From the NCBI GenBank assembly GCA_020630795.1, contig JAHDIK010000001.1:22341-62340 (forward strand): DNA of 40,000 bases, given 5' to 3'. Each line of letters begins with the position of its first letter. Position 1 is the stretch's first letter. The position numbers were made by a program, and so were the translations under genes. Under the pieces are notes generated by a model. The model searched no databases. It was not told the DNA's origin and saw only the letters and a list, made by a program, of their open reading frames with translations. This DNA is from Colwellia sp. GTDB taxonomy: Bacteria; Pseudomonadota; Gammaproteobacteria; Enterobacterales; Alteromonadaceae. Shown here one piece after another: positions 9,328 through 33,188 of this stretch.

Positions 9328-9492
9328 AAACTTAACCTTAACAAATACCTGATATTCTTGGTTTGATCTCAATGAACAAAGCTTACGCTATTCACTTAAA
9401 TCTTAGTAGTTTAAATGCAGTGCACTTGAACCTTGCTTGAAAAAGACCTGACAAACCCCATATATGTTTCATTAAATAATAGAGAGATTATT

Positions 9493-9993
9493 ATGTTTAG
9501 GTTTTTGTTCCTCCTATTTATTGTTATACCCATTATTGAAATTGCGCTGTTAATGCAGATAGGACAATGGATTGGCGTATGGCCAACTATTGCTATTGTT
9601 ATTATTACTGCTTGGTTGGGCGCAAAAAATGTAAAGCAGCAAGGTATCTCTACGTTAAATTCTGTTCAAACTAAAATGGCTCAAGGGCAAGCTCCGTCAG
9701 AGGAAATAGTTTCAGGCTTAATGTTACTTATTGCTGGCGTTTTATTGTTAACACCAGGGTTTGCGACCGATATCTTTGGTTTGTCTTTACTCATACCTTC
9801 ATTTCGCAAAGGTATTGTTAAAGTGTTCCAAAAAAATGTACCTACACAAACGTTTACTGGTGGAGGGTTTCAATATCACTCTCAACATGAACAGCCGGTT
9901 AACGATGACTTTTTTAGAGAACCAGATAAAAAAGATCCGAGTTCACGCCATCAGGGCCAAATACTTGATGGAGAATTTGAGCGTAAAGAATAA
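9493..9993 (+). CDS. fxsA: FxsA family membrane protein
   Basis: MFRFLFLLFIVIPIIEIALLMQIG... is typical of the FxsA N-terminus. I chose the start at the internal ATG 9493. The gene keeps its conserved position upstream of groES. Confidence 0.8.
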   Translation: MFRFLFLLFIVIPIIEIALLMQIGQWIGVWPTIAIVIITAWLGAKNVKQQGISTLNSVQTKMAQGQAPSEEIVSGLMLLIAGVLLLTPGFATDIFGLSLLIPSFRKGIVKVFQKNVPTQTFTGGGFQYHSQHEQPVNDDFFREPDKKDPSSRHQGQILDGEFERKE

Positions 9994-12332: not shown

Positions 12333-13538
12333 ATGTCGCTGACAGCCCAAGAAGTTAAAAGTATTTGTTGTCCTGAAGATAAAAAGCAAATTAAAAAGTT
12401 TGATGGTAAGGGCTTATTTTTATTGATTAAAAGTAATAATTCTAAGCTGTGGAGGATGCGCTATCGGTTTTCAGGTAAGCATAAAGAAATAGCTTTAGGT
12501 CAGTACCCTGAGATACCCCTTGTTGAAGCAAGGAGGTTAGCAGAGGAGGCAAGGGTGTTACTGATGAAGGGCATTAACCCTTCAGACGAAAGAAGAGAAC
12601 GCAAACGCAGCTATTCAGTAACAGACAGACAATTTAATGTAATCGCTTTGAAATGGTGGGAGCAACAAAAAGATGCTTGGTCTGCGGATCACCAAGCACG
12701 AGTGAAGCGTTTTATCACCATTGATTGTAAATCGTTAACTTCATTGCTGATAGAAAAGATAGATGCTGGACACATTACCGAAGTCATGTTGTCTATAGAG
12801 GCTTCAGGTAGCCCTAAAAAAGCCCCTGTTATACTTTCCGTTATTAATCGCATCTTTGGCTACGCACTTGCTCATAGGCTGACGAGAAATAACCCCGCAC
12901 AAGGCTTACCACTAAAAGATATCATTAAGCCACTTAAAAAAGTTCGATCTCACTCAGCAATTATTAACCCTATAGAGTTGGGTAACTTAATTCATGACAT
13001 AGATATGACAATTTCAGGCACTTTCTGTACAGCTGAGGCACTAAAGCTTATTCCAAGGGTATTTCTTAGGCCAAAAGAAATTAGAGGGCTTAAATGGGAA
13101 TATGTTGATTTTGAGGAAAAGCTGATACGGATTCCCGCACAAGAAATGAAAAAAGACCGAGACCACCTTGTTCCGCTTTCTAAACAAGTCATTAAGCAGC
13201 TTGAATATATTTATGTTGAAACAAGATATTCACCTTATGTTTTTCCAAATAGCCGTGACAGCAGTATACCTATGAGTAAAAATGTAATGACAAATCGATT
13301 ACGAGACTTGGGATATTCGGCCGATGTTATGTCAGCTCATGGCTTTAGAAGTACGGCTTCAACAATTTTGCATGAACAAGGGTGGTCGCATGATGCGATA
13401 GAAGTGCAATTAGCTCACCTAACAGGGTCAAATACATCACGAGCATACAACCGAGCTATATATTTACCAGAGCGTAAAAAAATGATGCAAACGTGGAGTG
13501 ATTACTTAGAGGAGCTTAGTTCACAAAATAAAAAGTAA
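12333..13538 (+). CDS. tyrosine-type site-specific integrase (P4-like, N-terminal Arm/DUF4102-type domain)
   Basis: 401-aa ORF. The N-terminus (GKGLFLLIKSNNSKLWRMRYRFSGKHKEIALGQYPEIPLVEARRLAEEAR) is typical of the P4 integrase family. The catalytic region contains HGFRSTAST and LAHLTGSNTSRAYNRAIY. Confidence 0.9.
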   Translation: MSLTAQEVKSICCPEDKKQIKKFDGKGLFLLIKSNNSKLWRMRYRFSGKHKEIALGQYPEIPLVEARRLAEEARVLLMKGINPSDERRERKRSYSVTDRQFNVIALKWWEQQKDAWSADHQARVKRFITIDCKSLTSLLIEKIDAGHITEVMLSIEASGSPKKAPVILSVINRIFGYALAHRLTRNNPAQGLPLKDIIKPLKKVRSHSAIINPIELGNLIHDIDMTISGTFCTAEALKLIPRVFLRPKEIRGLKWEYVDFEEKLIRIPAQEMKKDRDHLVPLSKQVIKQLEYIYVETRYSPYVFPNSRDSSIPMSKNVMTNRLRDLGYSADVMSAHGFRSTASTILHEQGWSHDAIEVQLAHLTGSNTSRAYNRAIYLPERKKMMQTWSDYLEELSSQNKK

Positions 13539-13581: not shown

Positions 13582-14028
13582 TCACTTACTACGTATCCAT
13601 TCTTGTATATCTGATAATCGCCAACCCACATTACTGGTGCTTAGTGCGATACGAGCAGGAAACTTACCTGCACGCTCTAAACGCCAAAGGGTAGTTCTTG
13701 ATAAACCAGTAAGTGCTTGAACTTCTTTCGAACGAACAATTTTATCTTGAGCTGAATCAAAACCTTGCGGCTTGTGAGAAACATTAACAGCAGGAGCAAC
13801 TGCTTGAACTTTACCCAGTAAATAATTAAGTAATTGAAAACCAAAAAACTCGATTTGTTTTTCAGTAACTTGAATAAACTCTATTTGATGACTCGCTTGT
13901 AATTTGGTAATTTCAGCTAACGGACACCGCAAAAATAGTGATGCTTCAGTAGGTGTAAATCGTTGATATAACGATATCCCCATACTATCGGCTAGTTCAC
14001 ATAAATTGGGTGTAAACGGCTTATCCAT
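13582..14028 (-). CDS. AlpA-family excisionase/transcriptional regulator with an extra N-terminal HTH-like domain
   Basis: The C-terminus (IVRSKEVQALTGLSRTTLWRLERAGKFPARIALSTSNVGWRLSDIQEWI) matches the Phage_AlpA/HTH_17 pattern. The gene is convergent with the integrase and stops at TGA. Confidence 0.7.
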   Translation of the reverse strand: MDKPFTPNLCELADSMGISLYQRFTPTEASLFLRCPLAEITKLQASHQIEFIQVTEKQIEFFGFQLLNYLLGKVQAVAPAVNVSHKPQGFDSAQDKIVRSKEVQALTGLSRTTLWRLERAGKFPARIALSTSNVGWRLSDIQEWIRSK

Positions 14029-14139
14029 CTAGTCGTTATGTTCCTGTCGTTGCACATTAATGTTAGTGTAGAGAATGTTATTGATTTCCTTTCAATTAGC
14101 ATACAAAATAAATCATAGGATCACTAGAGAATAGTTTAC

Positions 14140-14565
14140 ATGGCATTTGCAGTTCATCTATCAAAATCAAACGAAAACTCGCTTGAAGCGCGGGTAAATA
14201 ACTTTCGTTCTGCATATGCTGCCTATCGTGATATTCAAACCAGCCAGTCACTCCACCAGCAAGCTCAAATGCAAGATACATTAGGTACAAAAGAAGAGTT
14301 AACAGAGGCTAACTCTATTATCAAGAGTAGCCTCGATATGGCTGCCAAAGACTTTAGTAAAAGTGAACTTCAAAAAGCTCAAAAGTTAGGGTTGATTTCT
14401 GATTTAGAAGTCAAAAGTATTGATGCGCTTACAATGGGTAATGACTTTACTGTTTCCCCTGCTGAACATGAGATCCAAGAGAATAAAAACCGTATAGCTG
14501 AAGCTAGAGCCTCAATGAATACTAAAAATAACGAGAAGAGCAAAGACAAAGGTAGAGATTTTTAA
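14140..14565 (+). CDS. hypothetical protein (141 aa, helical/charged)
   Basis: ORF only. Its C-terminal tail resembles the C-terminus of the island relaxase (see findings). Confidence 0.35.
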   Translation: MAFAVHLSKSNENSLEARVNNFRSAYAAYRDIQTSQSLHQQAQMQDTLGTKEELTEANSIIKSSLDMAAKDFSKSELQKAQKLGLISDLEVKSIDALTMGNDFTVSPAEHEIQENKNRIAEARASMNTKNNEKSKDKGRDF

Positions 14566-14626
14566 CAACAACCTAGTTGTTTATTTCTTTTAACTTCGTT
14601 TATTCCGTTTAAATAACGCAGTAAAC

Positions 14627-14755
14627 TGATAGTTAAGCCAATATTGTACATTAACTATCACGCTTTTCAGGACAACTATCACATTAATCAGGGTTAAAAT
14701 CTCATTTTTCAGGTATTAAGACACACTTTTCAGTATATAGGTTTTATTATCACAA
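14627..14755 (+). repeat. iteron array (putative oriV / rep operator)
   Basis: Four to five direct repeats in exact 21-bp phase: 14651 ttaactatcacgcttttcagg, 14672 acaactatcacattaatcagg, 14693 gttaaaatctcatttttcagg, 14714 tattaagacacacttttcagt, 14735 atataggttttattatcacaa. An inverted half-site tgatagttaa at 14627-14636 is the exact reverse complement of 14651-14660. The array lies immediately upstream of the Rep_3-type gene. Confidence 0.6.
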
Positions 14756-14816
14756 AATTTGCATTTATGTGATTTTTCAATAGATTATAAATAGTCTATT
14801 ACTTAACCACCTAAAA

Positions 14817-16079
14817 ATGTCCCACCAAGAAATAACTGCAATTGATTGAAATAAATCATTAGTCAGATGAAACGACTTTACTTCAGCCAGTTACACGCTT
14901 TCGCCAGATGCCCATAGAATATTAGCTGTAGCAATATCAGCCATAGCTAAAGATGATCAAAACTTTGTTACCTTTCGCATATATACCAAGCAACTTATCG
15001 ATTTTTATCCGGCACTCAAAAACGATAAAAATGCTATTGCTAGGATAGACCAAGCGACCGATTCACTCATGAGCGCTCATATCAAAATAAAACAAGTCAA
15101 TGGCTGGCTCAAAAGGCACTTAATCCATTCTTGTCAGTTTATTAAAAACAACGGCCATGCCTATGTTGATATCAAGCTCAATAACGATATGCTGCCATAT
15201 CTCATTGGCGTTAAAGGCTACTTTTCAGCACCAAAACTAGAAAATATCAAACACTTTAAAAAAGACCAGCACTTTAAACTTCATGCTTACTTATTCTCGT
15301 ATCTTTATCGTGGTACTACTGGCAATGTCAGCATTGAACAAATTCGTGAAATACTCGATATCGACAAAAAGCAATACAAATTGGTGTGACACTTAAAAAG
15401 CCGTTTATTACTGCCAAGTATCGAATTTATTAATGTCGTAACCGATATCAAAGTGACAATTAAAGACGTAAAACACGGTAGGCGTATAGCAGGGTTTAAA
15501 TTTACCATTAGCAAGCAATACAAGGACAGAGCTAAAACAACGCCAAAACAAATAATCGAGAAAGCACAGCCAACAACTACCCACATGGCGCTAGCAGAGC
15601 AATATAAAGCTATTGGTGTAAAAGCGGACGAATTCGAAAAACTAAGTAAGAAACATGAACAAACTTACCTTAAGCAATTGCTTATTTATGCTCAATACCG
15701 CACAACTAAACAAACCATACAATCAATGTTCAAGTACTTGTGCGGTGTTTTAAACAATAAACCGCAGCTAGAAGATTTATACACGCCAAATTGCCTATTA
15801 AAACAGAAACAAGCAAAACAAAAATTAGTTGAAATTCATCAACAACAAACAAGTAATCTACAAACACAAGATAAAGTAGATGAGTTTAAAGCGCTGTCGA
15901 AAAAAGTAGAACAGTACTTATTAAGCTGTTCTGAAAGTCATCTCCAAACAATAAACCAAGAATTTAGCGAACAAAGTTTTGCTACCGGGCTAACCAAGCT
16001 TTGAAAAACAGTAGACTTAAACAAAACTTATATTAAAGCCATGTATTACCTCTTTATCGCTAAACATTATCATCTATAA
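14817..16079 (+). CDS. Rep_3-type plasmid replication initiator, single frame containing in-frame TGA codons (disrupted/pseudogene under standard code 11)
   Basis: One frame runs from ATG 14817 to TAA 16077, joining track ORFs 15069-15389 and 15453-16004. The N-terminus (LVRxNDFTSASYTLSPDAHRILAVAISAI) and C-terminus (LLLPSIEFINVVTDIKVTIKDVKHGRRIAGFKFTI) fit the Rep_3 pattern. In-frame TGA codons occur at 14847, 14868, 15387 and 16002, with no TAA/TAG and no frameshift. Confidence 0.65.
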
Positions 16080-16248
16080 AGAAACAGTTTTTTTACAGTC
16101 ATGTTGTACAAATTATTTATACAGTGAGTTATGCCTTAAGTTTTCAAGTTGTAAATATTGTAACTGCTCACTAACTTACCAACCTTTACAACTAGCCAAA
16201 AACAGGCATAACTAAAAATCTTTTTGCCAAATAAACATCGTCAATATA

Positions 16249-16288
16249 ATAAGTTAGCAATAAATGATTATTTGCTAACTTATTTTTA
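16249..16288 (+). terminator. hairpin plus T-run downstream of rep (terminator or operator)
   Basis: 12-bp perfect stem ataagttagcaa (16249-16260) pairs with ttgctaacttat (16272-16283), followed by ttttt. Confidence 0.45.
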
Positions 16289-16498
16289 ATGAGCAAAAAA
16301 AAGAAGTTTTTAACCGCGATTCAAGTAGATGTTTTTAACAGCTGACTGGCAACCAACCCGCCTAAAGGCAAAAAATACCAATGATGATTAGACAAGGTGA
16401 AAGTGTATTACGACTTAGTACCATTGACTGAGCATGAACTGGCGTCGATTGTGAAGTATATTCGCATATTGAGTAGAAATAACGATAAGGATATTTAG
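16289..16498 (+). CDS. possible small protein (69 codons) with three in-frame TGA codons, including a TGA-TGA tandem
   Basis: Own translation from ATG 16289 to TAG 16496 gives MSKKKKFLTAIQVDVFNSxLATNPPKGKKYQxxLDKVKVYYDLVPLTEHELASIVKYIRILSRNNDKDI. TGA codons are at 16343, 16382 and 16385. No family was recognised. A GTG-initiated 33-codon version without TGA is an alternative. Confidence 0.3.
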
Positions 16499-16689
16499 GC
16501 TGGTTGATGGCTTGTGATACTCTCTGTGTGGCAACGATATTATGTATAAATAAGGTTTAAAGATTGAATACTTCTACCAAGCATTAATCGCATATTAAAC
16601 AGTAAGCCATGCAACCATTAAATACCTGCCATAAGCACCACCAATTGCCACCGTATATGCACTGCTATAATACTCATTAAAATTTAAAA

Positions 16690-18135
16690 ATGTTACAAGC
16701 AGCTCAATGGCTGAAAAGATCCCGGCATAAGTTCAAATTGCACCAATTTTTACGACAATTGAATAAACACCTAACCACAAACGGCCTAAAAAAACACGGT
16801 TATTTAGTCGCATCATCATGAAGTGGTAAAAGTGAGTTGATCAAGCTATTAGTTTATCGAGAACTAATCAAACCTGAACCAAAAGAGGCAGTAATATTGC
16901 TAGACCCTCATGGTGATATGGCACAAGAAATTGCGCAGTTTAACGAGTTTAGCCACACAAAATACGCTAACCGATTAGTGTTTATTGATCCAAGTTTGAA
17001 GCAAGGCTATTCACCCAGTATTAACCCGTTTCAGCTTGAATTTAAAACAGAAAGTAACATTGCCTTAATGACACAAGAGCTACTAAGTATTATCAATGTA
17101 CTCCTGCAATGATTAGGGCAATCAAATAGCTGAACACCAAACCAATGAGCCAGTACCACAAATCAAATGGACGCGATTTTAAGCCCATGTATTGCCACGC
17201 TGTTACGTTGTGGAAATAGCTCATTTTCTGACTTACAGCGCTTTATGGACGACAACAATAATGCTGATTTACTGGCTTTAGGGCAGCAATCACCTAATCC
17301 ACAACATAGGTTATTGTTCAGGCATAAATTTAACAGCCCGTTATTTAGTGCTACTAAACACGGCATTTATACCCGTTTACAAGTGATATTAAATGATCCC
17401 ACGTTTCAAAACCTGATATCCAATACCACTACCATTAACTTGAAACAGCTCATTGAAGAAAAGAAAATTATTCTTTTCAAATTATCACTCGGTAATGCCT
17501 GAAGTGATAGCGTACAAGCTTACGGGCGTTTTATTGTTGGCCTACTGCGAATTATTGCCCTGCAAAGAACCAACATAGCAGTACACAAACGCGTACCAAT
17601 ACTGCTGTTTATTGATGAGTTCCAAAACTTCATTTCTAGCGATATAGAAAAGGCACTCACACAGCTAAGAAAGTACGGTTTACACTTAATGCTAGCGAAT
17701 CAATATGTATGACAACAAATATCATCAGCACTGCAAAAAACGCTATTTGCATCAGGCGTTACAATTGCCGGAAAAAATGAAAAAAAGAGTTTAGGGTTAC
17801 TAGCTAATGAAATGGAACTTACAGTTGATGAACTTAAACAGCTAAATACTGGGGAGTTTTACCTGCAAGCAGCAAACTACCCACCGATTAAAATTAAAAC
17901 GCCTAAGTACCTGCTATGAAGCAAAAACGCTATGCCATCAAAGCATCGGTATAACTTGATAAAACAAAACTTACAACGTTATTACAGCAAACTTAAACCA
18001 CACGATGCTCATAGTGATTTAACCCACGAGATTAACAATCAAAAACATAATCAATATTATGTGAGCCAGCAACAAATAAGCCCCAATACCCAACTCGAAA
18101 ACTTACACAGTAAATACCAACTTGAATGAGACTAA
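16690..18135 (+). CDS. TraD/FtsK/HerA-like P-loop DNA-translocase-type ATPase, single frame containing eight in-frame TGA codons (disrupted under code 11)
   Basis: One frame runs from ATG 16690 to TAA 18133, joining track ORFs 16837-17112, 17167-17502 and 17932-18129. Walker A is VASSxSGKS (x = TGA at 16819). LLDPHGD and Walker B (ILLFIDEFQNF) are present, as is a MLANQYVxQ motif. TGA codons are at 16819, 17110, 17131, 17146, 17500, 17710, 17917 and 18127. Confidence 0.7.
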
Positions 18136-18959
18136 CCGAAAAACAGATCATCATTTTAGAAGCCTTGGCTCGTTTTAAATACTTAACCAGTCAACAACTA
18201 CAAATAATATTCACCAGTAAAAGTACCAGCGCTATAAATACCGCGATTAGAAGTTTAAAAGGCTTTAAATATCCATTAGTAAAAAGCTTAAGCTTTGGCA
18301 TAACCCCATGACACGGTAAATTGCCACACGTTCATTTTTTAACGTCTGCGGGTATTAAAGTTTTGGTAGAGCAGTTATCAATACCACTACAAAAAATATA
18401 CGCACCTACGCACAGAAACAGCTTTTTCCAGCGTGATTACTTTCATCGTATATCAACCGTTACCTTTAATATTTTGTTCCAGCGCTGGCTAATAAACCAA
18501 GGCCATCAACTGTATTTTTTCAAAAGTTATTTCAACCGACCAAAACATGAAAACGGCCACAAAGCTGAAACGACAATAACAAGCTGAGAATACAAATCAG
18601 AACCTGATGGCATAGGTTTATATTTCGCTAATACCCAGCCGCATTTGTTTTTATTTGAACAACATAATGGCGTAGATGCAAAGCGCGCTATAGGGCAAAT
18701 AACTCACCATTGTTACGGCTTAGCCAATGGCGCAGCGTCTGAACAATTTAAACTGAATAAGCCTTTAAAAATTTATTATGTTTTTGAGCACGAAAGCTGT
18801 TTGAAGGCAGCACTTAACTATTTTGAAAACGATAAATGACTAATGAAGTTTAGAGGCCATTTTTACTTCAAAACCAATCAAGCACTAATAAATAATTTTG
18901 CTGAACACTGGCAAATACCATGATCAGTAAATGCTAAACAATTTTGTTCACTGCAATAA
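18126..18959 (+). CDS. Replic_Relax (replication-relaxation) family protein, single frame containing four in-frame TGA codons (disrupted under code 11)
   Basis: One frame runs from ATG 18126 to TAA 18957, joining track ORFs 18126-18311, 18321-18587 and 18645-18839. The N-terminal wHTH-like region (LTEKQIIILEALARFKYLTSQQLQIIF ... GKLPHVHFLTSAGIKVL) fits the family pattern. TGA codons are at 18309, 18585, 18837 and 18921. Confidence 0.6.
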
Positions 18960-19034
18960 GTAAATTTCGTTGTTCTTAGTCTCAAAAAGCTAAGGGCAAC
19001 GGCATGTTTACTTATTGCAAAAAAGGAGCAATTT

Positions 19035-19355
19035 ATGTCGCACTTAGCCACACCTGAATTAAAAAAAATATTCGAAAACTACCCGTTTTACTCGCAAGAA
19101 AACAACAGTGACCCGTTAGTTATTGCCAAATTGTTTGATGCATACGGCAGCGCTACGTGGTATATCACCGAATATAGCCCGGTAGAAAACACCGCTTTTG
19201 CTTATGTTACTGGCCTAGCTCATGATGAATGGGGCTACGTGTCGTTAACAGAGCTTGAAAGCATCATGCTTGCGGCACAAGTGCCACGAATTGAACGTGA
19301 TATGTATTTTGAATCAGTTAAATTTAGTGAGCTGAAATTGAAAAAGGCATGTTGA
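19035..19355 (+). CDS. DUF2958 domain protein
   Basis: 106-aa ORF with a strong SD (aaggag). PLVIAKLFDAYGSATWYITEY...AFAYVTGLAHDEWGYVSLTELE is typical of plasmid/ICE DUF2958 proteins. It stops at TGA 19353, immediately followed by a terminator. Confidence 0.75.
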   Translation: MSHLATPELKKIFENYPFYSQENNSDPLVIAKLFDAYGSATWYITEYSPVENTAFAYVTGLAHDEWGYVSLTELESIMLAAQVPRIERDMYFESVKFSELKLKKAC

Positions 19356-19357
19356 TT

Positions 19358-19390
19358 AAAAAGACCAAGGAAACTTGGTCTTTATTTTGG
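19358..19390. terminator. bidirectional rho-independent terminator
   Basis: Stem aagaccaag (19361-19369) pairs with cttggtctt (19374-19382), with T-runs on both strands. It sits between convergent genes. Confidence 0.65.
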
Positions 19391-19858
19391 TGAGTCTTCT
19401 GTTTTAGCATTTGCAATTTTATTAACTAAAACAAGAGTAATAATAAAAAGTTGAATTACATTATTGATGAGCGACATCATCATTAATCTGAACGCGATAC
19501 TTTGTGCTTGAGTGGTAAAGGTGACAATGCTGGTTGCAAAAGTTATGAATAGGCACGCTATTGTGATTTTAAATAATGTAAAAAAAACTTCAGAATTTCC
19601 ATCCTCTAGCCATCGCTTAAAAAATTTATATTTTTGCAGTGAAAATAAAAACGTAGCCATAGCGGCAAGAAAGCCAAGCATAGTAAAGCTAAACCCTGCA
19701 ATTATCGTAGAAAGTGTCCGGACATCAGTAAACCCCAAACTTAATTGAAATTTGGATTTAATAAACAAATAAATGAGGCCAAGTACTACGCCTATCAGTG
19801 GTGATAGATAAGCGACTTTTTTTAATTTAGCTATCTGAGTTTTCGTCATTTTTTTCAA
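19382..19858 (-). CDS. small four-TM membrane protein (158 aa)
   Basis: ORF with four hydrophobic helices. It overlaps the upstream 325-aa gene by 23-32 nt (TTG at 19858 or ATG at 19849). No family was recognised. Confidence 0.6.
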   Translation of the reverse strand: MKKMTKTQIAKLKKVAYLSPLIGVVLGLIYLFIKSKFQLSLGFTDVRTLSTIIAGFSFTMLGFLAAMATFLFSLQKYKFFKRWLEDGNSEVFFTLFKITIACLFITFATSIVTFTTQAQSIAFRLMMMSLINNVIQLFIITLVLVNKIANAKTEDSPK

Positions 19859-26778: not shown

Positions 26779-28238
26779 TGTCAAAAATTATCAAAGATAC
26801 TTTTTCAGGCTTATTTAAGATTGGCTCGCTCGTCGCTAAAAATAAGTTGTTAGTAAAAGAAACAGGCGCAAGGTTTGCTACAGCTAAAGAGCTAGCTTCT
26901 ATTTTTTCCGGCCGAAATAAAGGCTTATTGATTGATGGGAAAAACAACCGTATTTCTCAAACAGATTCATATGAACATGTTGCGGTAATCGCTAAACCGG
27001 GTAGTGGTAAAACAACAGCGTTTATTATTCCTAACATTTTTGAACTATCAAATTCCGATTGTTCAATGATTGTGAACGATCCAAGTTCAGAAGTTTACCA
27101 ACTTACTAGCGGCCATTTGAAAGTCCAAGGTTATAGGGTTTTAAAATTAAGTCCTGATGATTTAGCGTCATCTTCTCGATTTAATCCCTTTGCGGGTTTA
27201 GATGCTCGTCATACCATAGAAATAGAGCAAGTATGCGCTGCAATCATTATGTCAAAGTACAGTACTGATAAAGAACAGCTTTGGAATGATGGTGCTATTT
27301 CTATTATGGAAATATTGGCTAAATGTTTAGCTTACAGCCAACCACATAAGCTAAACCTTGTTGAACTAAATTCGTTAGTGCAACGTTTTGGTAGTGATGG
27401 CTCCGGTTTAGATGATTGGGTAGCTGAAAATGCAGTTAATCCGTATTACCCAAATGATAAAAGCTTGGTTGAATCATGGATTGGCTTAACAACCAGTAAT
27501 GAAAAAATGCTAAGTAGCTATGTCACTATTTGTAAAACGGCATTAAAACAATTAAACAACCCCCAAGTTCGAGAATTACTAAGTTCAGATACGCTAGAGT
27601 TGGAAAGTATTCGCCAACAAAATACTATTATATATTTAAATTTTCCTGAATCTCAGCAAGCTTATTATCAGTTCATTATTGACGTATTTTACGCACGCCT
27701 TTTTACTGAGGTAATGAAAGCTAAACCCACAAAACACGAATTAGACATATTCGCGTTTTTAGATGAGTTTGGTAATTCTTATATTCACAATTTTAATACC
27801 ATCATCACCAATGTTCGAAAGTACCGAGTATCCTTATCTTTGGTGTTTCAAGGCATATCTCAACTAGAAGATAAATATGGTGAACAACGCGCCAAATCAA
27901 TAAAAGCAGGTATAGGTAGCTCATTGATATTTAAAGGCGGTGATTTAGACACCAACCAAGAGTTTGCACAAGTGATCGGTAAACGAGTGATCACGCAACG
28001 GGAAAATTTTACGAGTGTTGTTCAACAGTACAATGAACTAGATTTACTGTCTTCAGGGCAGCTTAGAACGCTAGCTGACAACCAAGCTGTTTATGTTTCA
28101 AAACATCACCATCCAACCATTGTTGAAACAGTTAACTTTTTTAATCATTCCCGTTATGCTGGTTTAGCTAAAAAACAACCCGCTCAATGTAATGAGCAAT
28201 CAATTAAACTCGATTTTGATAGTAAGTTAAGGATTTAG
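26778..28238 (+). CDS. type IV coupling protein (TraG/VirD4/TraD family), no N-terminal TM segment
   Basis: 486-aa ORF from GTG with SD gaagga. Walker A is AKPGSGKTT and Walker B is FAFLDEFGN. Confidence 0.85.
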   Translation: MSKIIKDTFSGLFKIGSLVAKNKLLVKETGARFATAKELASIFSGRNKGLLIDGKNNRISQTDSYEHVAVIAKPGSGKTTAFIIPNIFELSNSDCSMIVNDPSSEVYQLTSGHLKVQGYRVLKLSPDDLASSSRFNPFAGLDARHTIEIEQVCAAIIMSKYSTDKEQLWNDGAISIMEILAKCLAYSQPHKLNLVELNSLVQRFGSDGSGLDDWVAENAVNPYYPNDKSLVESWIGLTTSNEKMLSSYVTICKTALKQLNNPQVRELLSSDTLELESIRQQNTIIYLNFPESQQAYYQFIIDVFYARLFTEVMKAKPTKHELDIFAFLDEFGNSYIHNFNTIITNVRKYRVSLSLVFQGISQLEDKYGEQRAKSIKAGIGSSLIFKGGDLDTNQEFAQVIGKRVITQRENFTSVVQQYNELDLLSSGQLRTLADNQAVYVSKHHHPTIVETVNFFNHSRYAGLAKKQPAQCNEQSIKLDFDSKLRI

Positions 28239-28240
28239 GC

Positions 28241-28477
28241 ATGGGATTTGAATTTCAATTTATTGCATTTTATTTAATTTTTGGGTTTTCAGGATTATTC
28301 CTCGGCTGGTTTTTTAGAAATGGTATATCAATTATCGGGATAATCTTTCTAGCCTGTGTTTATCCAATTATTCAGGTTTTATCAACTATTAACGTATTTC
28401 AATTTACAATTTGCTTTTTAGCTGGTTTCTTAATCCACACATGGAAACCTATATATCATAAGTTTAAAAGCCTATGA
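28241..28477 (+). CDS. small membrane protein (78 aa)
   Basis: ORF with hydrophobic helices. IIGIIFLACVYPII resembles VAIGLLFLLFMYPVF in the next gene. Confidence 0.45.
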   Translation: MGFEFQFIAFYLIFGFSGLFLGWFFRNGISIIGIIFLACVYPIIQVLSTINVFQFTICFLAGFLIHTWKPIYHKFKSL

Positions 28478-29253
28478 GTGAGTTAATTTTTACAACCGCT
28501 TTGGTTATGTTTGCGGGGTATTTAGCAGGCAAACTATTTAAAGGTTTTAATCCTTTCTTGGTAGCCATTGGCTTACTGTTTTTACTCTTCATGTATCCAG
28601 TATTTATGGAGTCTGAAAACGAATATGTTACATACGCTATTTTTGGCTTTGGTGTGATATTGAATTTTAATCAGCCCGTATCAAGATTACGTGCTTGGTT
28701 CGCTGATTTAATGAACCTTATAAGTCTACGCCGATTTAGTGCAAGTTATGCTAATGATATTGGTGAACAAAAAGAACAAGTTGAAGCCGACTTATATCGT
28801 CAAAAACACGAAGTCGAAGAAGAAATCAGACGACAAAAGCGACAAGCTGAACAAGACATTGAACGCCAACGCAGAGAGGCTGAAGAGGCTATTCGTCGAG
28901 AAGCTGAAAATCTGAAACGTGAGCAAGAAAGAGCGCGTTCAAATAATAGTAAAAGCCAGAATAGCCAAGACAATTCTAGACAAGAAAGCAATCAAAATAG
29001 ACAAAGCCAAAATCAATCAAAAAATACTGATTCCGGCCACTTAAATCCTCAATATTTCCCCGATGCTTGTGAAGTATTAGGTAAAGGAGAAGGCTGCATT
29101 TTAAAAGAATATAAAGTTGCTTATATGCAACTTATTAAGTTGTATCACCCTGACAAAATTTCATGCTTATCTGGATCTCGTAAAGCCCAAGCAGAAAATG
29201 AAGCAAAGTTAATAAATGCTGCTTGGGATACGATTAAGAAAAAGCTTAAGTAA
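28474..29253 (+). CDS. membrane-anchored coiled-coil protein with a C-terminal J-domain
   Basis: 259-aa ORF with N-terminal TM helices, a charged coiled coil (EEEIRRQKRQAEQDIERQRREAEEAIRREAENLKREQERAR) and a Q/N/S-rich linker. The C-terminus YKVAYMQLIKLYHPDKIS...EAKLINAAWDTIKKKL carries the HPD motif of J-domains. Confidence 0.7.
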   Translation: MSELIFTTALVMFAGYLAGKLFKGFNPFLVAIGLLFLLFMYPVFMESENEYVTYAIFGFGVILNFNQPVSRLRAWFADLMNLISLRRFSASYANDIGEQKEQVEADLYRQKHEVEEEIRRQKRQAEQDIERQRREAEEAIRREAENLKREQERARSNNSKSQNSQDNSRQESNQNRQSQNQSKNTDSGHLNPQYFPDACEVLGKGEGCILKEYKVAYMQLIKLYHPDKISCLSGSRKAQAENEAKLINAAWDTIKKKLK

Positions 29254-29290
29254 ATCAAATTAAAATAATAATAAATACAAGGCAGTAAAT

Positions 29291-29806
29291 ATGTTCCATC
29301 TCTTCAAAAAGTCTCTAATAACTTTTGCTGCCATATTTCTAATGACTGGTTGTAGTGCAATGTATAAAGATCAACAAAGAGTTGATCGTATTCATCACCA
29401 ACGCGTCAGTTACACCCAGTCAATGATGAAAATTAAGTATAAATACGATAGAAACTCATACCCTGGTAGTAGTTACAAACTTTATTTGGATAATCAATAC
29501 CTTTTAACTTCAGACAAGGACAACATACTTCATTTAACAGATAAAAAATTACGTTGGAAGTTATATGAAAGTTATAAAACTAAAGGAAGGCTTTGTTTTG
29601 AAATCCGTAAAAGCAAACCGAAATATGATTTGTCACTATTTTCAGAATACAGTTGCCTTATTAATACAGAGTTAGAGAAAAAGTTTGCTGCTGACATAGA
29701 AATTGAAGAAATAGAGCAAAAAATTAAACGTTTAAAGCGACAACTGAAAAATGAAAGTGTTACTAATAACTCAAACTTTAATGCTAAAACTCAGGCTGTT
29801 CCTTGA
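29291..29806 (+). CDS. putative lipoprotein (171 aa)
   Basis: The signal peptide ends in a lipobox-like LMTGC. No family was recognised. Confidence 0.5.
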   Translation: MFHLFKKSLITFAAIFLMTGCSAMYKDQQRVDRIHHQRVSYTQSMMKIKYKYDRNSYPGSSYKLYLDNQYLLTSDKDNILHLTDKKLRWKLYESYKTKGRLCFEIRKSKPKYDLSLFSEYSCLINTELEKKFAADIEIEEIEQKIKRLKRQLKNESVTNNSNFNAKTQAVP

Positions 29807-29853
29807 ATGATGGGCGTGCTTAGGCTTTAATCTATCATTTAGAATACGCGATC

Positions 29854-30951
29854 TCATCGGCCGATGTTGGTATTGGATAATGCTTTAAACCGCACGATCT
29901 TAAATTCGCCCAAAGTACTGTCCTTTCCTTTATTCAATACTGGAGAGCGGTGTAGTTCATTCACGGTAGCATAGATGTAATTATCCAAGCCAACAGCAAG
30001 GCCATCTGGCCATGACAAGTCATTGCGCTTAATAATAGGATTATAATCCCCATTTGGATGAGTTACTCCGATTGCGTCATTTGTTATGGAAGTAACATAC
30101 ACATTACCTGAGTTATCGATTGTTATGCCATCAGAAATGGGCTTGTCACCATAACGTTGTACTTTCTTATCTAACGCTTGCTCTGTTAGCGTTGTATCTA
30201 AAAGATCTTTTGTCGCAATTCGGTAAATGCTTGTGCCAGACATTGCACCATAGTAAACATAGTTAAAGTTATTATCGATGGTAATAGGGTTTATGCCCAA
30301 ACGAATAGGCTGATCGTTTAGGTAGATAGGTTGATCGTCAATGACCATGTCTATGTCTTCTGCTTTTGTTGACGTTGATTCTTTTAATACTCTACGAGCA
30401 ACACCTGTCTCTAGGTCAACTACAACGATTGAGCCAGTACCAGTATCGGCGATGTAGATAGCGTTATTTCTGCTGTCAACGGCTAAATCATTTAGGAAAC
30501 TTGAACCAGTAATCACAGGCTTAGCTAAATAAATGATCTTATGCAGTTGTTCTTTTTTTGTATTCCATCCTATTAATCGCCCTGCATGTTCAGGACCTGC
30601 TGCATCTAGCAACCATAAGGTACCATTTTTATCTACATTTAACCCTAGTACACCGTAGAGGCCACCAGCCTCAAGCTCTTGAGCTGCATACGCCCAGTTT
30701 GCATTTGGGTAAGGTTTGGTTGTGCCGTTTGGTAACAACTCGACGATACGTAGAGATTTTCCGTAAAATTCATGGACACTTAGAAAAATTCGGCCATCGG
30801 GTCCTACCGCAATGTTGCCCGGAGGTGTGTCGGCACTAAGATTGGCAACTATTTCAAATTGCCCAAGTTTGTCGGCCGCTGCAACGTTTAGGCTAAATGT
30901 GCAGATAGCAACCATCGCAGCTGACGTTAATACTTTAAATGAAAAATTCAT
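29854..30951 (-). CDS. secreted beta-propeller protein (MRJP/yellow-like or SMP-30/gluconolactonase-like)
   Basis: 365-aa ORF with a signal peptide. Repeated blade-like motifs are present (LWLLDAAG, NAIYIADTGTGSIVVVDLETG, NVYVTSITNDAIGV). Confidence 0.55.
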   Translation of the reverse strand: MNFSFKVLTSAAMVAICTFSLNVAAADKLGQFEIVANLSADTPPGNIAVGPDGRIFLSVHEFYGKSLRIVELLPNGTTKPYPNANWAYAAQELEAGGLYGVLGLNVDKNGTLWLLDAAGPEHAGRLIGWNTKKEQLHKIIYLAKPVITGSSFLNDLAVDSRNNAIYIADTGTGSIVVVDLETGVARRVLKESTSTKAEDIDMVIDDQPIYLNDQPIRLGINPITIDNNFNYVYYGAMSGTSIYRIATKDLLDTTLTEQALDKKVQRYGDKPISDGITIDNSGNVYVTSITNDAIGVTHPNGDYNPIIKRNDLSWPDGLAVGLDNYIYATVNELHRSPVLNKGKDSTLGEFKIVRFKALSNTNIGR

Positions 30952-30965
30952 GTTAGTGTTTTCTC

Positions 30966-31631
30966 TTAAATAGTTATTGTCGCGTTATTAGATTTTTTCA
31001 ATAATTCAACAACTTCGCTTGGCTCTGCGCGTAGAGTGTAATCCGCAGTAACGTCAGCAAATACGATTTTTCCTGATTGGTCTATGACATAAGTTGCTGC
31101 AAGTGGTAGTTCGAAAACGCCTTTACCGTTGTGAGCTTCAATTTCAATACCAAAACTACTATAAATTGGCATTAGTGAATCTGGTAATGTAAATACTAAG
31201 CCTAAGGTTTTAGCAAACTCAGCGTTAAGATCTGACAATACAGAGAACGTTAGCTCGTTTTTTTCAGCGGTTGAAATTGATGCATCAGGCAATTCAGGAG
31301 TAATAGCCAGTAAACTAGCACCTTGTGTTTTAATGTCTTCAATAACGTTTTGGTAGGCACGCAATTCTAAGTTGCAGTATGGACACCAGCCACCGCGGTA
31401 GAAAGTAAGTACAACAGGACCTTGCTTAAGTTTGTCTAACAAGGTTACTTCATTGCCAAGTTGGTCTGTAAGCGAAAATGTTGGAAATACTTCACCTACT
31501 TTTGGAGCGTACCTCTCTAACTCTTTCGCTTTTAAAGTGTCGGTTTCAGCTAACATCACAGAGAGCTTTTCAGCAGGAATATTTTTAGCAGACGCTTTGC
31601 GTACTTCCGTTAATTGATCTTTAAGGTTCAT
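30966..31631 (-). CDS. peroxiredoxin-like (AhpC/TSA-redoxin) family protein
   Basis: 221-aa ORF with VVLTFYRGGWCPYCNLELRAYQ (thioredoxin fold, CxxC). Confidence 0.7.
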   Translation of the reverse strand: MNLKDQLTEVRKASAKNIPAEKLSVMLAETDTLKAKELERYAPKVGEVFPTFSLTDQLGNEVTLLDKLKQGPVVLTFYRGGWCPYCNLELRAYQNVIEDIKTQGASLLAITPELPDASISTAEKNELTFSVLSDLNAEFAKTLGLVFTLPDSLMPIYSSFGIEIEAHNGKGVFELPLAATYVIDQSGKIVFADVTADYTLRAEPSEVVELLKKSNNATITI

Positions 31632-31647
31632 ATAAGTTTCCTTGAAA

Positions 31648-31737
31648 TTAATAACATCTTGAATGATTGTTCAAAATGTTATTAACATCATTAATGTTTG
31701 TCAATATAAATTTGAATAATCATTCAAAATACTATTA
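31648..31737. promoter_or_regulatory. duplicated palindromic operator in a divergent promoter region (probable TetR binding sites)
   Basis: ttgaatgattgttcaaaatgttatta (31659-31684) and ttgaataatcattcaaaatactatta (31712-31737) are direct copies 53 bp apart. Each contains a ttgaa/ttcaa-type palindrome. The first copy is nested in the larger palindrome ttaataacat...atgttattaa (31648-31685). Confidence 0.5.
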
Positions 31738-31762
31738 AATAAACCCAGTACTCAATAAAGCA

Positions 31763-32341
31763 ATGAGCGTTATGGCAATTAAAAAATTTGATGTTGATGT
31801 TGTGCTTGAACAAGCGATTAATACATTTTGGCAATATGGCTATCATGGAACTTCGATGCAGCAACTGCTAAAAGCTACGGGGTTGCGCCCAGGAAGCTTT
31901 TATCGCGAGTTTGACAGTAAGGAAGGATTGTACTTACTTGCGCTAAGTCGCTACGCTGCGAACACCATTACGAGTGTTAACAACCGTATACAAAACAGCT
32001 CCAGTGTACTTGAAGGTATTAAAGTGATACTGATAGAACTGTTTGAAGAGGCTAAAACTAAAAATTATTGTGGTTGTTTTTTGGTTAAAACCCAATTGGA
32101 ACTATCTGCTCATAATGAGCCTATACTAAGTAATGTTTCCGATGCGTTTGCTAAGATCGAAGCAAACTACGGGGTTCATCTCCGAACAGTATTTTCACCT
32201 GAGGTCAGCCTGCATTATGCGAAACAGCTTATGTTCGTAATTTTTGGTATCCGTATATACAGTTACCAAAGGGCGCTACCTAAAGACGTTAATAAATTTA
32301 TTTTATCTATCTTGCCTTGGTTGGAAGAAGGTTCTAATTAG
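31763..32341 (+). CDS. TetR/AcrR family transcriptional regulator
   Basis: 192-aa ORF with the N-terminal HTH FWQYGYHGTSMQQLLKATGLRPGSFYREFDSKEGLY. Confidence 0.8.
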   Translation: MSVMAIKKFDVDVVLEQAINTFWQYGYHGTSMQQLLKATGLRPGSFYREFDSKEGLYLLALSRYAANTITSVNNRIQNSSSVLEGIKVILIELFEEAKTKNYCGCFLVKTQLELSAHNEPILSNVSDAFAKIEANYGVHLRTVFSPEVSLHYAKQLMFVIFGIRIYSYQRALPKDVNKFILSILPWLEEGSN

Positions 32342-33188
32342 AATCCTAGACTCTGTAATTAACTTTATAACAGGAGGTAGACAAAAGCACTGCCTAGTTC
32401 CATAATAATTTTTCATTTAAATACCTACTTGCGCTCAGTTTTATATCTTCTTTTTGAAGTATAAGTAGGTTTGTACCTGCTTCATGTTAAATATGTTAGC
32501 TGGTCAAGTAGCTTATAGTCTAAAAAAACACGTTACCCTTAATATAAATAACGTTGAAAGAAGCGCGATGGCTACCGATTAAACCGAGCTGGGGTTAATT
32601 ACTTAATGGTTGGAGGTATAAAGCGGGAACAGTAATATTCCCCATTTAACAACTTTAAATATGCTAACAACATTTTCCTGTTTAAATTATGTCTATTGCG
32701 GACGTTAGTTAAATTGTGCCGTTAAAAACATATTTGGCTGAAAACTGGAGCCGAGAGCCTTTAAATTCAATGTTTTTAGGTTTTGGAATGATAGAAATAT
32801 TTTGCGCAATTGCTAATGCCTGTAAAAGTCATGTTAATAATTATATTAGTATCCTTTATGTTATCGGTGGTTACTGGTAACCACTAGAGGTCGCCGGGAT
32901 TTTTTGTTATTTATCAGTAAGTAATTATAATCATTAGTTGTCCATGCTAGTGCAGTGCATCAGTGATTACTATTGCTCATTAAGCTATAAAGTGTTTAAA
33001 CTATTGGGTACTTATTGAGGAGGAAATGGACGTTTAATATAAAATATATTGTCCCAAGGGAGCGAATGCTGACATTGACAACGTCAAGTTGTAAGGTGTG
33101 CAATGAGAGCTGTTAGATCAATTAATAGATGTAGCACCTTGATGCTAACTATTATTAACAAAAACTAAAGAATAAAAAGTCATGGTTA

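Follow-up and report, generated by a model that had tools for sequence, protein, structure and literature searches.

In-frame UGA at conserved glycine positions in the replication and DNA-processing genes of a gammaproteobacterial genomic island

Introduction

Genetic code 25, in which UGA specifies glycine, has been described for the Absconditabacteria (SR1) and for BD1-5 'Gracilibacteria' (Campbell et al., 2013; Rinke et al., 2013, via PMC8629427 and the gTranslate preprint), and a 2026 preprint gives table 25 as reported only for the Patescibacteriota class JAEDAM01. The subject of the present analysis is an integrative, mobilisable island that lies beside groEL in a stretch of 40,000 nucleotides from the gammaproteobacterium Colwellia sp. 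(assembly GCA_020630795.1, contig JAHDIK010000001.1, positions 22,341 to 62,340; the whole stretch is called the window, and positions are counted from its first letter) and runs from an integrase gene at 12333 to about 29.8 kb. The genes for a replication initiator, an ATPase and a third protein of this island are open only if TGA is translated, and some sister islands carry a transfer RNA (tRNA) with the anticodon UCA. As in code 25, UGA is found in the island at conserved glycines, TAA and TAG are still stops, and UGA would be decoded by a tRNA(UCA) with the elements G1:C72, C2:G71, G3:C70 and U73. Unlike code 25, the island recodes a handful of genes inside a gammaproteobacterium that uses UGA as a stop and in which release factor 2 (RF2) is presumably present, and its tRNA has a long variable arm.

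Stop-codon recoding is also known from phages of standard-code hosts, in which phage-borne suppressor tRNAs accompany recoded late or lytic genes (Borges et al., 2021/2022; bioRxiv 10.1101/2021.08.26.457843). The island resembles these phages in mixing a code-neutral integrase with recoded genes, in the presence of a suppressor tRNA in some copies and in that recoding may gate expression; the logic proposed for the phages, which pairs code-neutral lysogeny genes with recoded late genes, would by analogy be similar to that of the island. The recoded phage cases are TAG to glutamine and TGA to tryptophan, whereas in the island the change is TGA to glycine, the element is non-viral, with no phage structural genes seen, the recoded genes are those of replication and DNA processing, and most copies are without a tRNA of their own. 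The Patescibacterial phage RSA-ATP1 is described as carrying tRNA-Gly-sup(TCA) (PMC13059738). Like the islands it is a mobile element with a UGA-to-glycine suppressor tRNA and internal UGAs in many genes; however, the host of this phage already uses code 25, whereas the islands reside in code-11 chromosomes, where such a tRNA would alter a host stop. Glycine tRNA(UCA) is able to suppress UGA in an RF2-bearing gammaproteobacterium, as seen with the glyT-derived laboratory suppressors of E. coli, and natural tRNA-Sec-like 'allo-tRNAs' from metagenomes are long-armed, with stop anticodons and an 8/4 or 9/3 fold. The island tRNA differs from these in being natural, conserved and linked to the genes that would depend on it, and in its canonical 7/5 fold.

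No account of UGA=Gly genes on mobile elements of Gammaproteobacteria came up in full-text literature searches. The island combines two known kinds of system, code 25 and the recoding of mobile-element genes with a suppressor tRNA, and beside Patescibacteria and phages it would be a third setting of UGA=Gly or gene-specific recoding, namely a non-viral island in free-living marine Gammaproteobacteria. The island would demonstrate that local reassignment of a stop codon is possible in a cell still using that stop, and would offer both a natural test of how code differences gate horizontal gene transfer and a natural, structurally unusual UGA-to-glycine suppressor of interest for genetic-code engineering.

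Genes interrupted by TGA and by nothing else

The following genes of the window contain in-frame TGA codons:

14817 to 16079, forward strand: Rep_3 replication initiator (rep), 420 amino acids, with Rep3_N and Rep3_C domains and putative sense TGAs
16289 to 16498, forward strand: conserved open reading frame (ORF) of 69 amino acids between rep and the ATPase gene, with three TGAs
16690 to 18135, forward strand: P-loop ATPase of the type IV coupling protein (T4CP)/DUF87 type, 481 amino acids, with seven internal, putative sense TGAs and an eighth near the ancestral stop
18126 to 18959, forward strand: remote Replic_Relax-like protein (third gene), 277 amino acids, assigned with hhalign, with four putative sense TGAs
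24439 to 24804, forward strand: backbone gene of 121 amino acids (cluster 6), with putative sense TGAs at 24544, 24661 and 24724

The TGAs of rep are at 14847, 14868, 15387 and 16002, ahead of a closing TAA at 16077; those of the ATPase gene are at 16819, 17110, 17131, 17146, 17500, 17710, 17917 and 18127 (closing TAA at 18133), and those of the third gene at 18309, 18585, 18837 and 18921 (closing TAA at 18957). None of the three contains an in-frame TAA or TAG or a frameshift, and every coordinate of the sixteen TGAs that an earlier, sequence-only reading of the window had listed as the sole kind of lesion was reproduced. In the other frames of 14817–18959 there are 48–93 TAA or TAG codons per about 1380 codons, or one per 15–29 codons, and the ~1175 codons free of them are therefore not a matter of chance (roughly e^-41 or less). 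The recoding had been described for these three genes, which holds, but that scope was too narrow, as the 69-amino-acid ORF and the 121-amino-acid gene are also TGA-coded. The former has TGAs at 16343, 16382 and 16385, the last two being consecutive (TGATGA, 16382–16387); it was called as a gene in the related loci L001, L002 and L189–L193, and L188 has a diverged homologue with two TGAs. The latter is present in nine loci, in all of which it has TGAs in matching columns, and it adjoins the 3' end of the DUF2958 gene in the minimal backbones L189 and L191.

When TGA is translated as X, the rep product matches Rep3_N (1.4e-18, 68 bits) and Rep3_C (1.3e-13, 51 bits), both above the cut-off, and with these two domains and four upstream iterons at 21-bp spacing the locus has the make-up of a Rep_3 iteron replicon. 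The ATPase, treated in the same way, matches T4SS-DNA_transf (8.5e-07; 28.6 bits, cut-off 20.1), TraG-D_C (23.9 bits, cut-off 22) and DUF87; these domains and a Walker A motif of the form A-S-S-(TGA)-S-G-K-S place it in the T4CP (VirD4/TraD/TraG) family, although it is without the N-terminal extension present in standard-coded relatives. For the third protein no Pfam match was obtained at E ≤ 0.01 with either X or G at the TGAs, the Replic_Relax (PF13814) threshold not being reached, and a PDB profile search gave nothing; its family profile aligned with the Pfam-verified Replic_Relax protein of locus L003 at an hhalign probability of 72% (E 3.5e-5). The family names first given to rep and the ATPase are thus upheld, and that of the third protein is reduced to a remote relationship. 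Pfam searches with the 121-amino-acid protein, with the product of a further family gene termed 'cluster 13' and with the proteins of L003 and L005 gave almost nothing. At 18127 the last TGA of the ATPase gene shares bases with the start codon of the third gene (ATGA), and in alignment A1, which includes standard-coded homologues, it falls on their true stop. A conserved TAA follows one codon later, relatives ending in '...EWD*', and the ATPase therefore terminates within two codons under either code; this TGA may be a stop or may be read as Gly-Asp-TAA.

The host is a user of the standard code. Outside the island 23 ORFs were called, all of them free of internal TGA; three, cutA among them, end on TGA, with a backup stop no more than two codons downstream in one of the three; it follows that the host reads UGA as a stop, as the earlier reading had concluded from host genes without internal TGA and from the stop of cutA.

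TGA codons fall on glycine columns

Where the island family has TGA, the standard-coded homologues of alignment A1 (Vibrio vulnificus, Pseudoalteromonas and others) have glycine. The clearest columns are those of the ATPase motifs. TGA 16819 of the window occupies the position of the Walker A glycine (A-S-S-[TGA]-S-G-K-S vs x-x-x-G-S-G-K-S), where 12 of 12 non-TGA sequences have glycine, and four relatives have TGA even at the invariant glycine of GK[ST], which is glycine in all 21 others. Glycine is likewise found in 21/21 non-TGA sequences at the DPHGD column, in 18/18 at YGRF, in 13/15 at NQYVGQ and in 14/19 at LLGNN, and in rep the relatives carry GGT, GGA or GGG at the column of TGA 15387.

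A Codetta-like test gave the same residue. Here, 68 standard-coded homologues were the basis of a profile hidden Markov model, whose emission probabilities were added up for 106 match-state TGAs from 17 genes; rep was left out because all 17 of its database homologues belong to the same family (42–90% identical), so that there was no standard-coded set. Glycine scored best, with alanine at -163 nats, serine at -169 and tryptophan at -499, and the control recovered the right residue for GGA, TCA, AGA, TTA and GCA. In the window alone, which offers five alignable TGAs, glycine was ahead by 8.9 nats. Tryptophan and cysteine together are nearly missing from the TGA columns of the third-gene alignment (1 and 5 of about 880 cells). 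Of the precedents for sense UGA that had been named at the outset (tryptophan in table 4, glycine in table 25 and suppression in phages), it is thus the residue of table 25, and not tryptophan, that applies.

TGA and GGN are exchanged in both directions at larger divergence. Locus L094, which shares the integrase and the groEL site with the window, shows four changes from TGA to GGN and five from GGN to TGA, and over 75 non-identical genes TGA makes up 427 of 1375 glycine-type codons (31%). Judged from such comparisons, TGA behaves as a working synonymous glycine codon here, which has been kept while the islands diversified in gammaproteobacterial chromosomes. The context after TGA gave no specific signal that strong termination contexts are avoided at sense TGAs, T at +4 being found after 16% of TGA and 17% of GGA codons. 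The position of TGA within genes differs slightly from that of GGN, towards the 3' end, with no sign of gating at the 5' end.

A family of islands under purifying selection

Relatives were collected by a protein search with the ATPase, after which contigs were fetched and genome and metagenome collections were scanned. About 40 related loci were obtained in this way, from marine metagenomes and from genomes of Colwelliaceae and Motiliproteus, and one of the hosts is an isolate, Motiliproteus sp. MSK22-1 (L007). The source names of identical or 90%-clustered proteins are Colwelliaceae bacterium 6441, Colwellia sp., Pseudocolwellia sp. and a metagenome-assembled genome (MAG) of Pseudoalteromonas marina. 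Full-length relatives of the ATPase with 84–99% identity are found on short metagenome contigs, with W at TGA in the database translation, and NCBI annotation cuts TGA-coded genes into fragments; this fragmentation, together with translation as tryptophan in a large protein collection, is why the family has gone unnoticed, and such handling by annotation pipelines makes it invisible in databases.

Within the family, TGAs occur in 35/53 copies of the ATPase gene, 26/35 of the third gene and 23/25 of rep, at 1–16 per gene in the aligned part and up to 21 in another backbone gene. All of these frames close on TAA or TAG, and none has an internal TAA or TAG or a frameshift. A sister clade of about 55% identity (L105–L109) is standard-coded and has no TGA, intermediate lineages have 1, 2, 3, 5 or 7–8, and some lineages have 11–15. 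Comparison of the window with its relatives gave ratios of non-synonymous to synonymous substitution (dN/dS) of 0.04–0.14 at dS 0.36–1.5 over all three genes, that is, 0.08–0.14 for rep, 0.08–0.11 for the ATPase gene and 0.04–0.11 for the third gene. Since rep, the ATPase gene and the third gene are under purifying selection, their products must be made somewhere. The TGA-containing genes are intact and conserved and are not decaying. The view that ordinary decay does not account for the TGAs is borne out by some 40 loci in which TGA is the sole interruption; the single island first described is real, and what had appeared to be one island is a member of a widespread family.

Several relatives occupy the same chromosomal position. 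In L087, L091 and L095 an island is present at the same groEL site with an integrase of 97.5% identity, and the integrase copies at this site in L087, L091, L095 and L094, at 91–97% identity, are all free of TGA. The minimal backbone, seen in L189–L193, consists of AlpA, a 143-amino-acid gene, rep, the 69-amino-acid ORF, the ATPase gene, the third gene, DUF2958 and the 121-amino-acid gene. Small contigs have no terminal overlaps that would indicate circular plasmid forms. A tblastn search of PLSDB with the ATPase gave distant matches only (29% identity or less), close relatives are absent from IMG/VR and INPHARED, and IMG/VR has distant relatives only; the family therefore corresponds to no known plasmid or phage.

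Locus L001 is a Logan contig of 6610 bp (SRR14415275) that is 100% identical to window positions 14824–21433. In L188, a Gammaproteobacteria MAG (GCA_015231865.1), a related island adjoins tRNA-Asn (9439–9513) and not groEL, and its rep is annotated by NCBI as a fragment of 232 amino acids.

A tRNA(UCA) in sister islands

A search with ARAGORN located a tRNA with the anticodon UCA in sister islands, as the sequence-only reading had asked to be looked for. It is 94 nt long, identical in L090/L181, L182 and L183, and present as a variant in L186. The acceptor stem has 7 bp, starting G1:C72, C2:G71, G3:C70, and is followed by U73 and an encoded CCA; there is a 4-bp D stem, an anticodon loop CUUCAGA, a 5-bp T stem and a variable arm of 23 nt. 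The label given by ARAGORN is 'SeC'; with Rfam, however, the general tRNA model reaches 62.8 bits, more than the tRNA-Sec model. The set G1:C72, C2:G71, G3:C70 and U73 is the rule given by Shulgina and Eddy for glycine-accepting tRNA(UCA) of code-25 bacteria (PMC8629427), and it is found in the tRNA(UCA) of L090, L182, L183 and L186. The glycine at TGA columns and the glycine identity set of the tRNA are independent lines of evidence, and they agree.

The L186 variant differs at 4 of 94 positions, whereas the flanks are about 80% identical. Among its changes, an A-U pair of the anticodon stem has become G-C, which is compensatory, and a G-C pair of the variable arm has become G-U. This pattern is the signature of a functional RNA.

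The tRNA is part of a cassette whose insertion site can be placed precisely. L182 aligns to window positions 13603–14550 (AlpA and the 141-amino-acid gene, 78%) and 14564–16050 (origin and rep, 88%), and between the equivalents of 14550 and 14564, immediately 3' of the 141-amino-acid gene and ahead of the origin, it has a 3.76-kb cassette that is absent from the window. The L182 cassette contains two small ORFs, the tRNA, a lipoprotein-like ORF of 335 amino acids with six TGAs and a REP-associated Y1 transposase (RAYT). The tRNA(UCA) had no match in BLAST searches of PLSDB, INPHARED and E. coli genomes or in exact and degenerate pattern scans of IMG/VR.

The tRNA(UCA) and the lipoprotein-like ORF always adjoin a RAYT (L182 3945–4643, L090 1619–2317, and L186); L186 has RAYT regions at 110–451 and 2120–2950, a second, partial copy being on the other side. 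The tRNA cassette may be a mobile unit in its own right. The TGA-coded lipoprotein-like ORFs that flank the tRNA (L183 197–1174 and 1764–2771; L186 941–1951) end in short tandem peptide repeats, in which TGA has a fixed place (…NEDLRA[TGA]NEDLRA[TGA]…, …AE[TGA]RRLDAE[TGA]…).

Recoding is confined to certain genes

The genes of the island fall into two groups, and the features that belong with the TGA-coded genes listed above are the following:

12333 to 13538, forward strand: tyrosine integrase directly 3' of groEL, with Pfam Arm-DNA-bind_3, Phage_int_M and Phage_integrase; no internal TGA
13582 to 14028, reverse strand: AlpA-type regulator or excisionase (Phage_AlpA, 1.9e-15); no internal TGA, TGA as stop
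14140 to 14565, forward strand: backbone protein of 141 amino acids (cluster 4), kept in 12 loci; no TGA
14653 to 14736, no strand: four iterons at 21-bp spacing (repeat families D1/D2), 5' of rep, the presumed Rep_3-type origin
19035 to 19355, forward strand: DUF2958 backbone gene, 106 amino acids; no internal TGA, TGA as stop (19353–19355)
19827 to 24084, reverse strand: variable cargo slot with RexA-like, membrane protein, RhuM, HsdM_N fragment and WYL genes; no internal TGA
25099 to 28238, forward strand: mobilisation module with MobC, a putative relaxase of 350 amino acids and a canonical T4CP; no internal TGA

When all ORFs of the family were clustered, TGAs were found in most or all copies of rep, the ATPase gene, the third gene, the 121-amino-acid gene and the 'cluster 13' gene of 560–690 amino acids. 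In contrast, the integrase, the relaxase, the canonical T4CP and the defence cargo (RexA, Hachiman HamA and helicase, McrBC) have no internal TGA in any copy, and DUF2958, AlpA and the 141-amino-acid protein are TGA-free in most copies. Several of the TGA-free genes use TGA as their stop. The integrase, AlpA, DUF2958, the cargo and the Mob/T4CP genes are free of internal TGA and are thus read correctly by the standard code of the host. Sense UGA is not genome-wide, as the host and many island genes are without internal TGA and several end on it; what is found is a recoded subset of genes beside code-neutral integration genes in a standard-code host, which is the arrangement of phage-type recoding. 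Backup stops within two codons of TGA-ending genes occur in some island genes and also in a host gene, and are not distinctive.

Loci L003 (1504–2615), L004 and L005 are heavily recoded, with a resolvase (six TGAs), an H-NS homologue (two) and many unknown proteins of 200–600 amino acids (5–21). Their recoded genes adjoin TGA-free Hachiman, McrBC and DNA methylase genes and a second, TGA-free pair of DUF87 ATPase and Replic_Relax genes.

A module that would need a suppressor in trans

The island probably contains a module written in a code-25-like dialect that can be translated only when a suppressor tRNA is supplied in trans. Dependence on a UGA suppressor has the best support among the explanations, since the sister islands have a tRNA(UCA) at a defined position where the window has none. 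In the dialect UGA would stand for glycine in rep, the 69-amino-acid ORF, the ATPase gene, the Replic_Relax-like gene and the 121-amino-acid gene, and we infer that the tRNA(UCA) is charged with glycine and decodes these UGAs. With no suppressor in trans, Rep, the ATPase and the relaxase-like protein would stop at codons 11, 44 and 62, and with one Rep, the ATPase and the third protein would be made at full length. Possible sources of the tRNA are a sibling island, another part of the genome and, after transfer, another type of cell. The integrated island would express its TGA-free integrase, AlpA, defence cargo and Mob/T4CP at all times, whereas replication from the iteron origin and DNA processing would be possible only where UGA=Gly decoding is available, so that the module would be locked by the genetic code. 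The sequence-only reading had pictured a silent module awaiting a UGA suppressor; the need for a suppressor is supported by the sister-island tRNA, whereas the idea that the module is kept silent until a helper supplies one is still conjectural. The model is directly testable, as isolates exist (Motiliproteus sp. MSK22-1 and Colwellia and Pseudocolwellia strains).

A number of observations weigh against this model. The window itself has no tRNA(UCA): neither ARAGORN nor Rfam at gathering thresholds reports any tRNA or other RNA family in its 40 kb, and the anticodon arm of the L090 tRNA is not found there with three mismatches allowed. Over about 54 family loci (~521 kb scanned) the tRNA(UCA) is present in only four distinct contigs, and a simple scan gave no promoter or terminator beside it. 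The variable arm of 23 nt is atypical for tRNA-Gly, and going by sequence, recognition by seryl-tRNA or cysteinyl-tRNA synthetase (SerRS, CysRS) could occur as well. DUF2958 ends on TGA in the window and in the identical L001, while all other relatives have TAA or TAG there; readthrough of this UGA would lengthen the protein by 139 residues, and the window lineage may thus be evolving without a suppressor. The gene-specific pattern could simply mirror descent from a UGA=Gly ancestor, and a 'regulatory lock' is a matter of functional inference. In addition, the TGA stops of host genes imply that RF2 is presumably present, against which the reading of 4–8 UGAs, and up to 21 in relatives, needs very efficient suppression. 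About a fifth of the host's genes end on TGA, and a UGA suppressor would carry a cost there as well.

Low-GC contigs with TGA in every gene

Next to the tRNA is a TGA-coded ORF with a G+C content (GC) of 27.5%, compared with about 36% for the island; it shares 86% nucleotide identity over 317 bp with contig L185. Contigs L185 (GC 26.7%) and L187 (GC 25.6%) contain TGAs in every ORF, up to 33 per gene. L185 encodes WxL-interacting (WxLIP), muramidase and YbaK-type proteins, and L187 is similar; in both, the homologue of the cassette ORF precedes an ORF homologous to the island 'cluster 13' protein (E 1e-7). The identity of the cassette ORF to L185 hints at an exchange with UGA=Gly Patescibacteria, and the code-25 Absconditicoccaceae are described as epibionts of Gammaproteobacteria (PMC13059738). 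The YbaK/ProX-type protein of L185 (5057–5530; Pfam 4.7e-25), which has an aminoacyl-tRNA editing domain, contains four TGAs itself.

Alternative explanations

The possibility that the genes are dead or that the TGAs are a sequencing or assembly artefact has next to no probability left. It would fit genes that are untranslatable under the host code and that NCBI annotation fragments, but the same pattern recurs in about 40 assemblies that were made independently, in different projects and on different platforms, and that include isolate genomes, dN/dS is about 0.1 downstream of the TGAs, TAA, TAG and indels are lacking and the TGAs are specifically at glycine columns. The comparative data (dN/dS 0.04–0.14, TGA as the sole interruption in about 40 loci) refute the pseudogene reading. 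It is also very improbable that UGA stands for another residue, be it tryptophan (table 4), selenocysteine, cysteine or serine. Such a reading could appeal to the 'SeC' label of ARAGORN and the W of database translations, to a long variable arm like those of the type-II tRNAs for serine and selenocysteine, to the TGA columns of rep, where serine ranks second among the residues, and to U73, which with C35 and A36 is common to tRNA-Cys. However, tryptophan and serine trail glycine by 499 and 169 nats and cysteine is outside the eight best-scoring residues, tryptophan and cysteine are almost absent from the TGA columns, and catalytic Walker A glycines are written as TGA. Selenocysteine is rejected in particular, as the tRNA has a 7+5 and not an 8+5 helix, a 4-bp and not a 6-bp D stem and U73 in place of G73, as the general tRNA model outscores tRNA-Sec, and as TGA at 31% of glycine-type codons is far too frequent for selenoproteins. 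Less remote, but improbable, is a constitutive ambiguous decoding, in which the host permanently expresses a tRNA-Gly(UCA) of its own and the island genes are always translated at some level, with no switch. Purifying selection in many islands that have no tRNA does call for a commonly available decoder; yet the flanking host genes do not avoid TGA stops (3/23, with a backup stop within two codons in 1/3), with efficient constitutive suppression the stops of roughly a fifth of host genes would be read through, and a TGA-free integrase and cargo would be odd if TGA were freely usable.

A more serious rival to the suppressor-dependent module, or a history complementary to it, is movement between codes. 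It has been considered that the TGA-coded backbone was imported from mobile elements of UGA=Gly Patescibacteria (Absconditabacterales/BD1-5), which are epibionts of Gammaproteobacteria, and this we regard as unlikely, if to be taken seriously; we would say much the same of a shuttle in which the TGA genes are expressed and selected mainly in a code-25 cell, while the gammaproteobacterium runs the TGA-free genes unless the tRNA is brought along. The low-GC contigs speak for such traffic, with their TGAs in every ORF, their surface proteins of monoderm type (WxLIP, muramidase) and the cassette ORF at 86% identity with the 'cluster 13' homologue behind it, as do the Absconditicoccaceae epibionts of Gammaproteobacteria and one of their phages, described with a tRNA-Gly-sup(TCA) (PMC13059738). 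The ATPase points elsewhere, in that its nearest standard-coded relatives are gammaproteobacterial (50–58% identity), whereas the best matches from Patescibacteria among 185,579 species representatives are just 23–33% identical. A gammaproteobacterial integrase and attachment site have stayed with the islands as these diversified and gained and lost TGAs, and the GC of the TGA genes equals that of the host. H-NS is typically proteobacterial, and some TGA-coded members encode a homologue of it. It is possible, though somewhat doubtful, that an element lineage circulates between UGA=Gly Patescibacteria and marine gammaproteobacterial hosts, some members carrying the long-armed tRNA-Gly(UCA) and the tRNA-less ones depending on it in trans. 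If so, the genetic code would be both a barrier to and a switch for horizontal transfer.

Host flanks, mobilisation module and cargo

Pfam scans place dsbD, cutA, fxsA, groES and groEL on one flank of the island and MRJP-like, AhpC and TetR genes on the other. The right-hand boundary and an attachment repeat were not found; comparison of the groEL-integrase junction with 19000–33000 gave a single 13-nt match as the longest common repeat. Pfam scans of the proteins of the window and of its relatives identified integrase, AlpA, Rep_3, T4CP, MobC and defence genes, and no virion genes (capsid, portal, terminase). The mobilisation module has matches to MobC, T4SS-DNA_transf (2.4e-50) and TraG-D_C and is kept in L087, and a protein of 353 amino acids in L188, syntenic with the putative relaxase of the window, matches PF03432 Relaxase.

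In the window the cargo is located 3' of DUF2958 and includes a RexA-like protein (Pfam 1e-39) adjoined by a membrane protein, whereas L087 has other genes in the equivalent slot. From its gene content, the slot at 19827–24084 looks like a hotspot for defence cargo. Other defence-like genes occupy it in L087, L092 and L090, among them those for a 646-amino-acid SLFN/AlbA_2 protein and a 1171-amino-acid ATPase. An ORF of 110 amino acids at 22828–23160 consists solely of an N-terminal HsdM domain and is apparently the remnant of a type I restriction-modification system.

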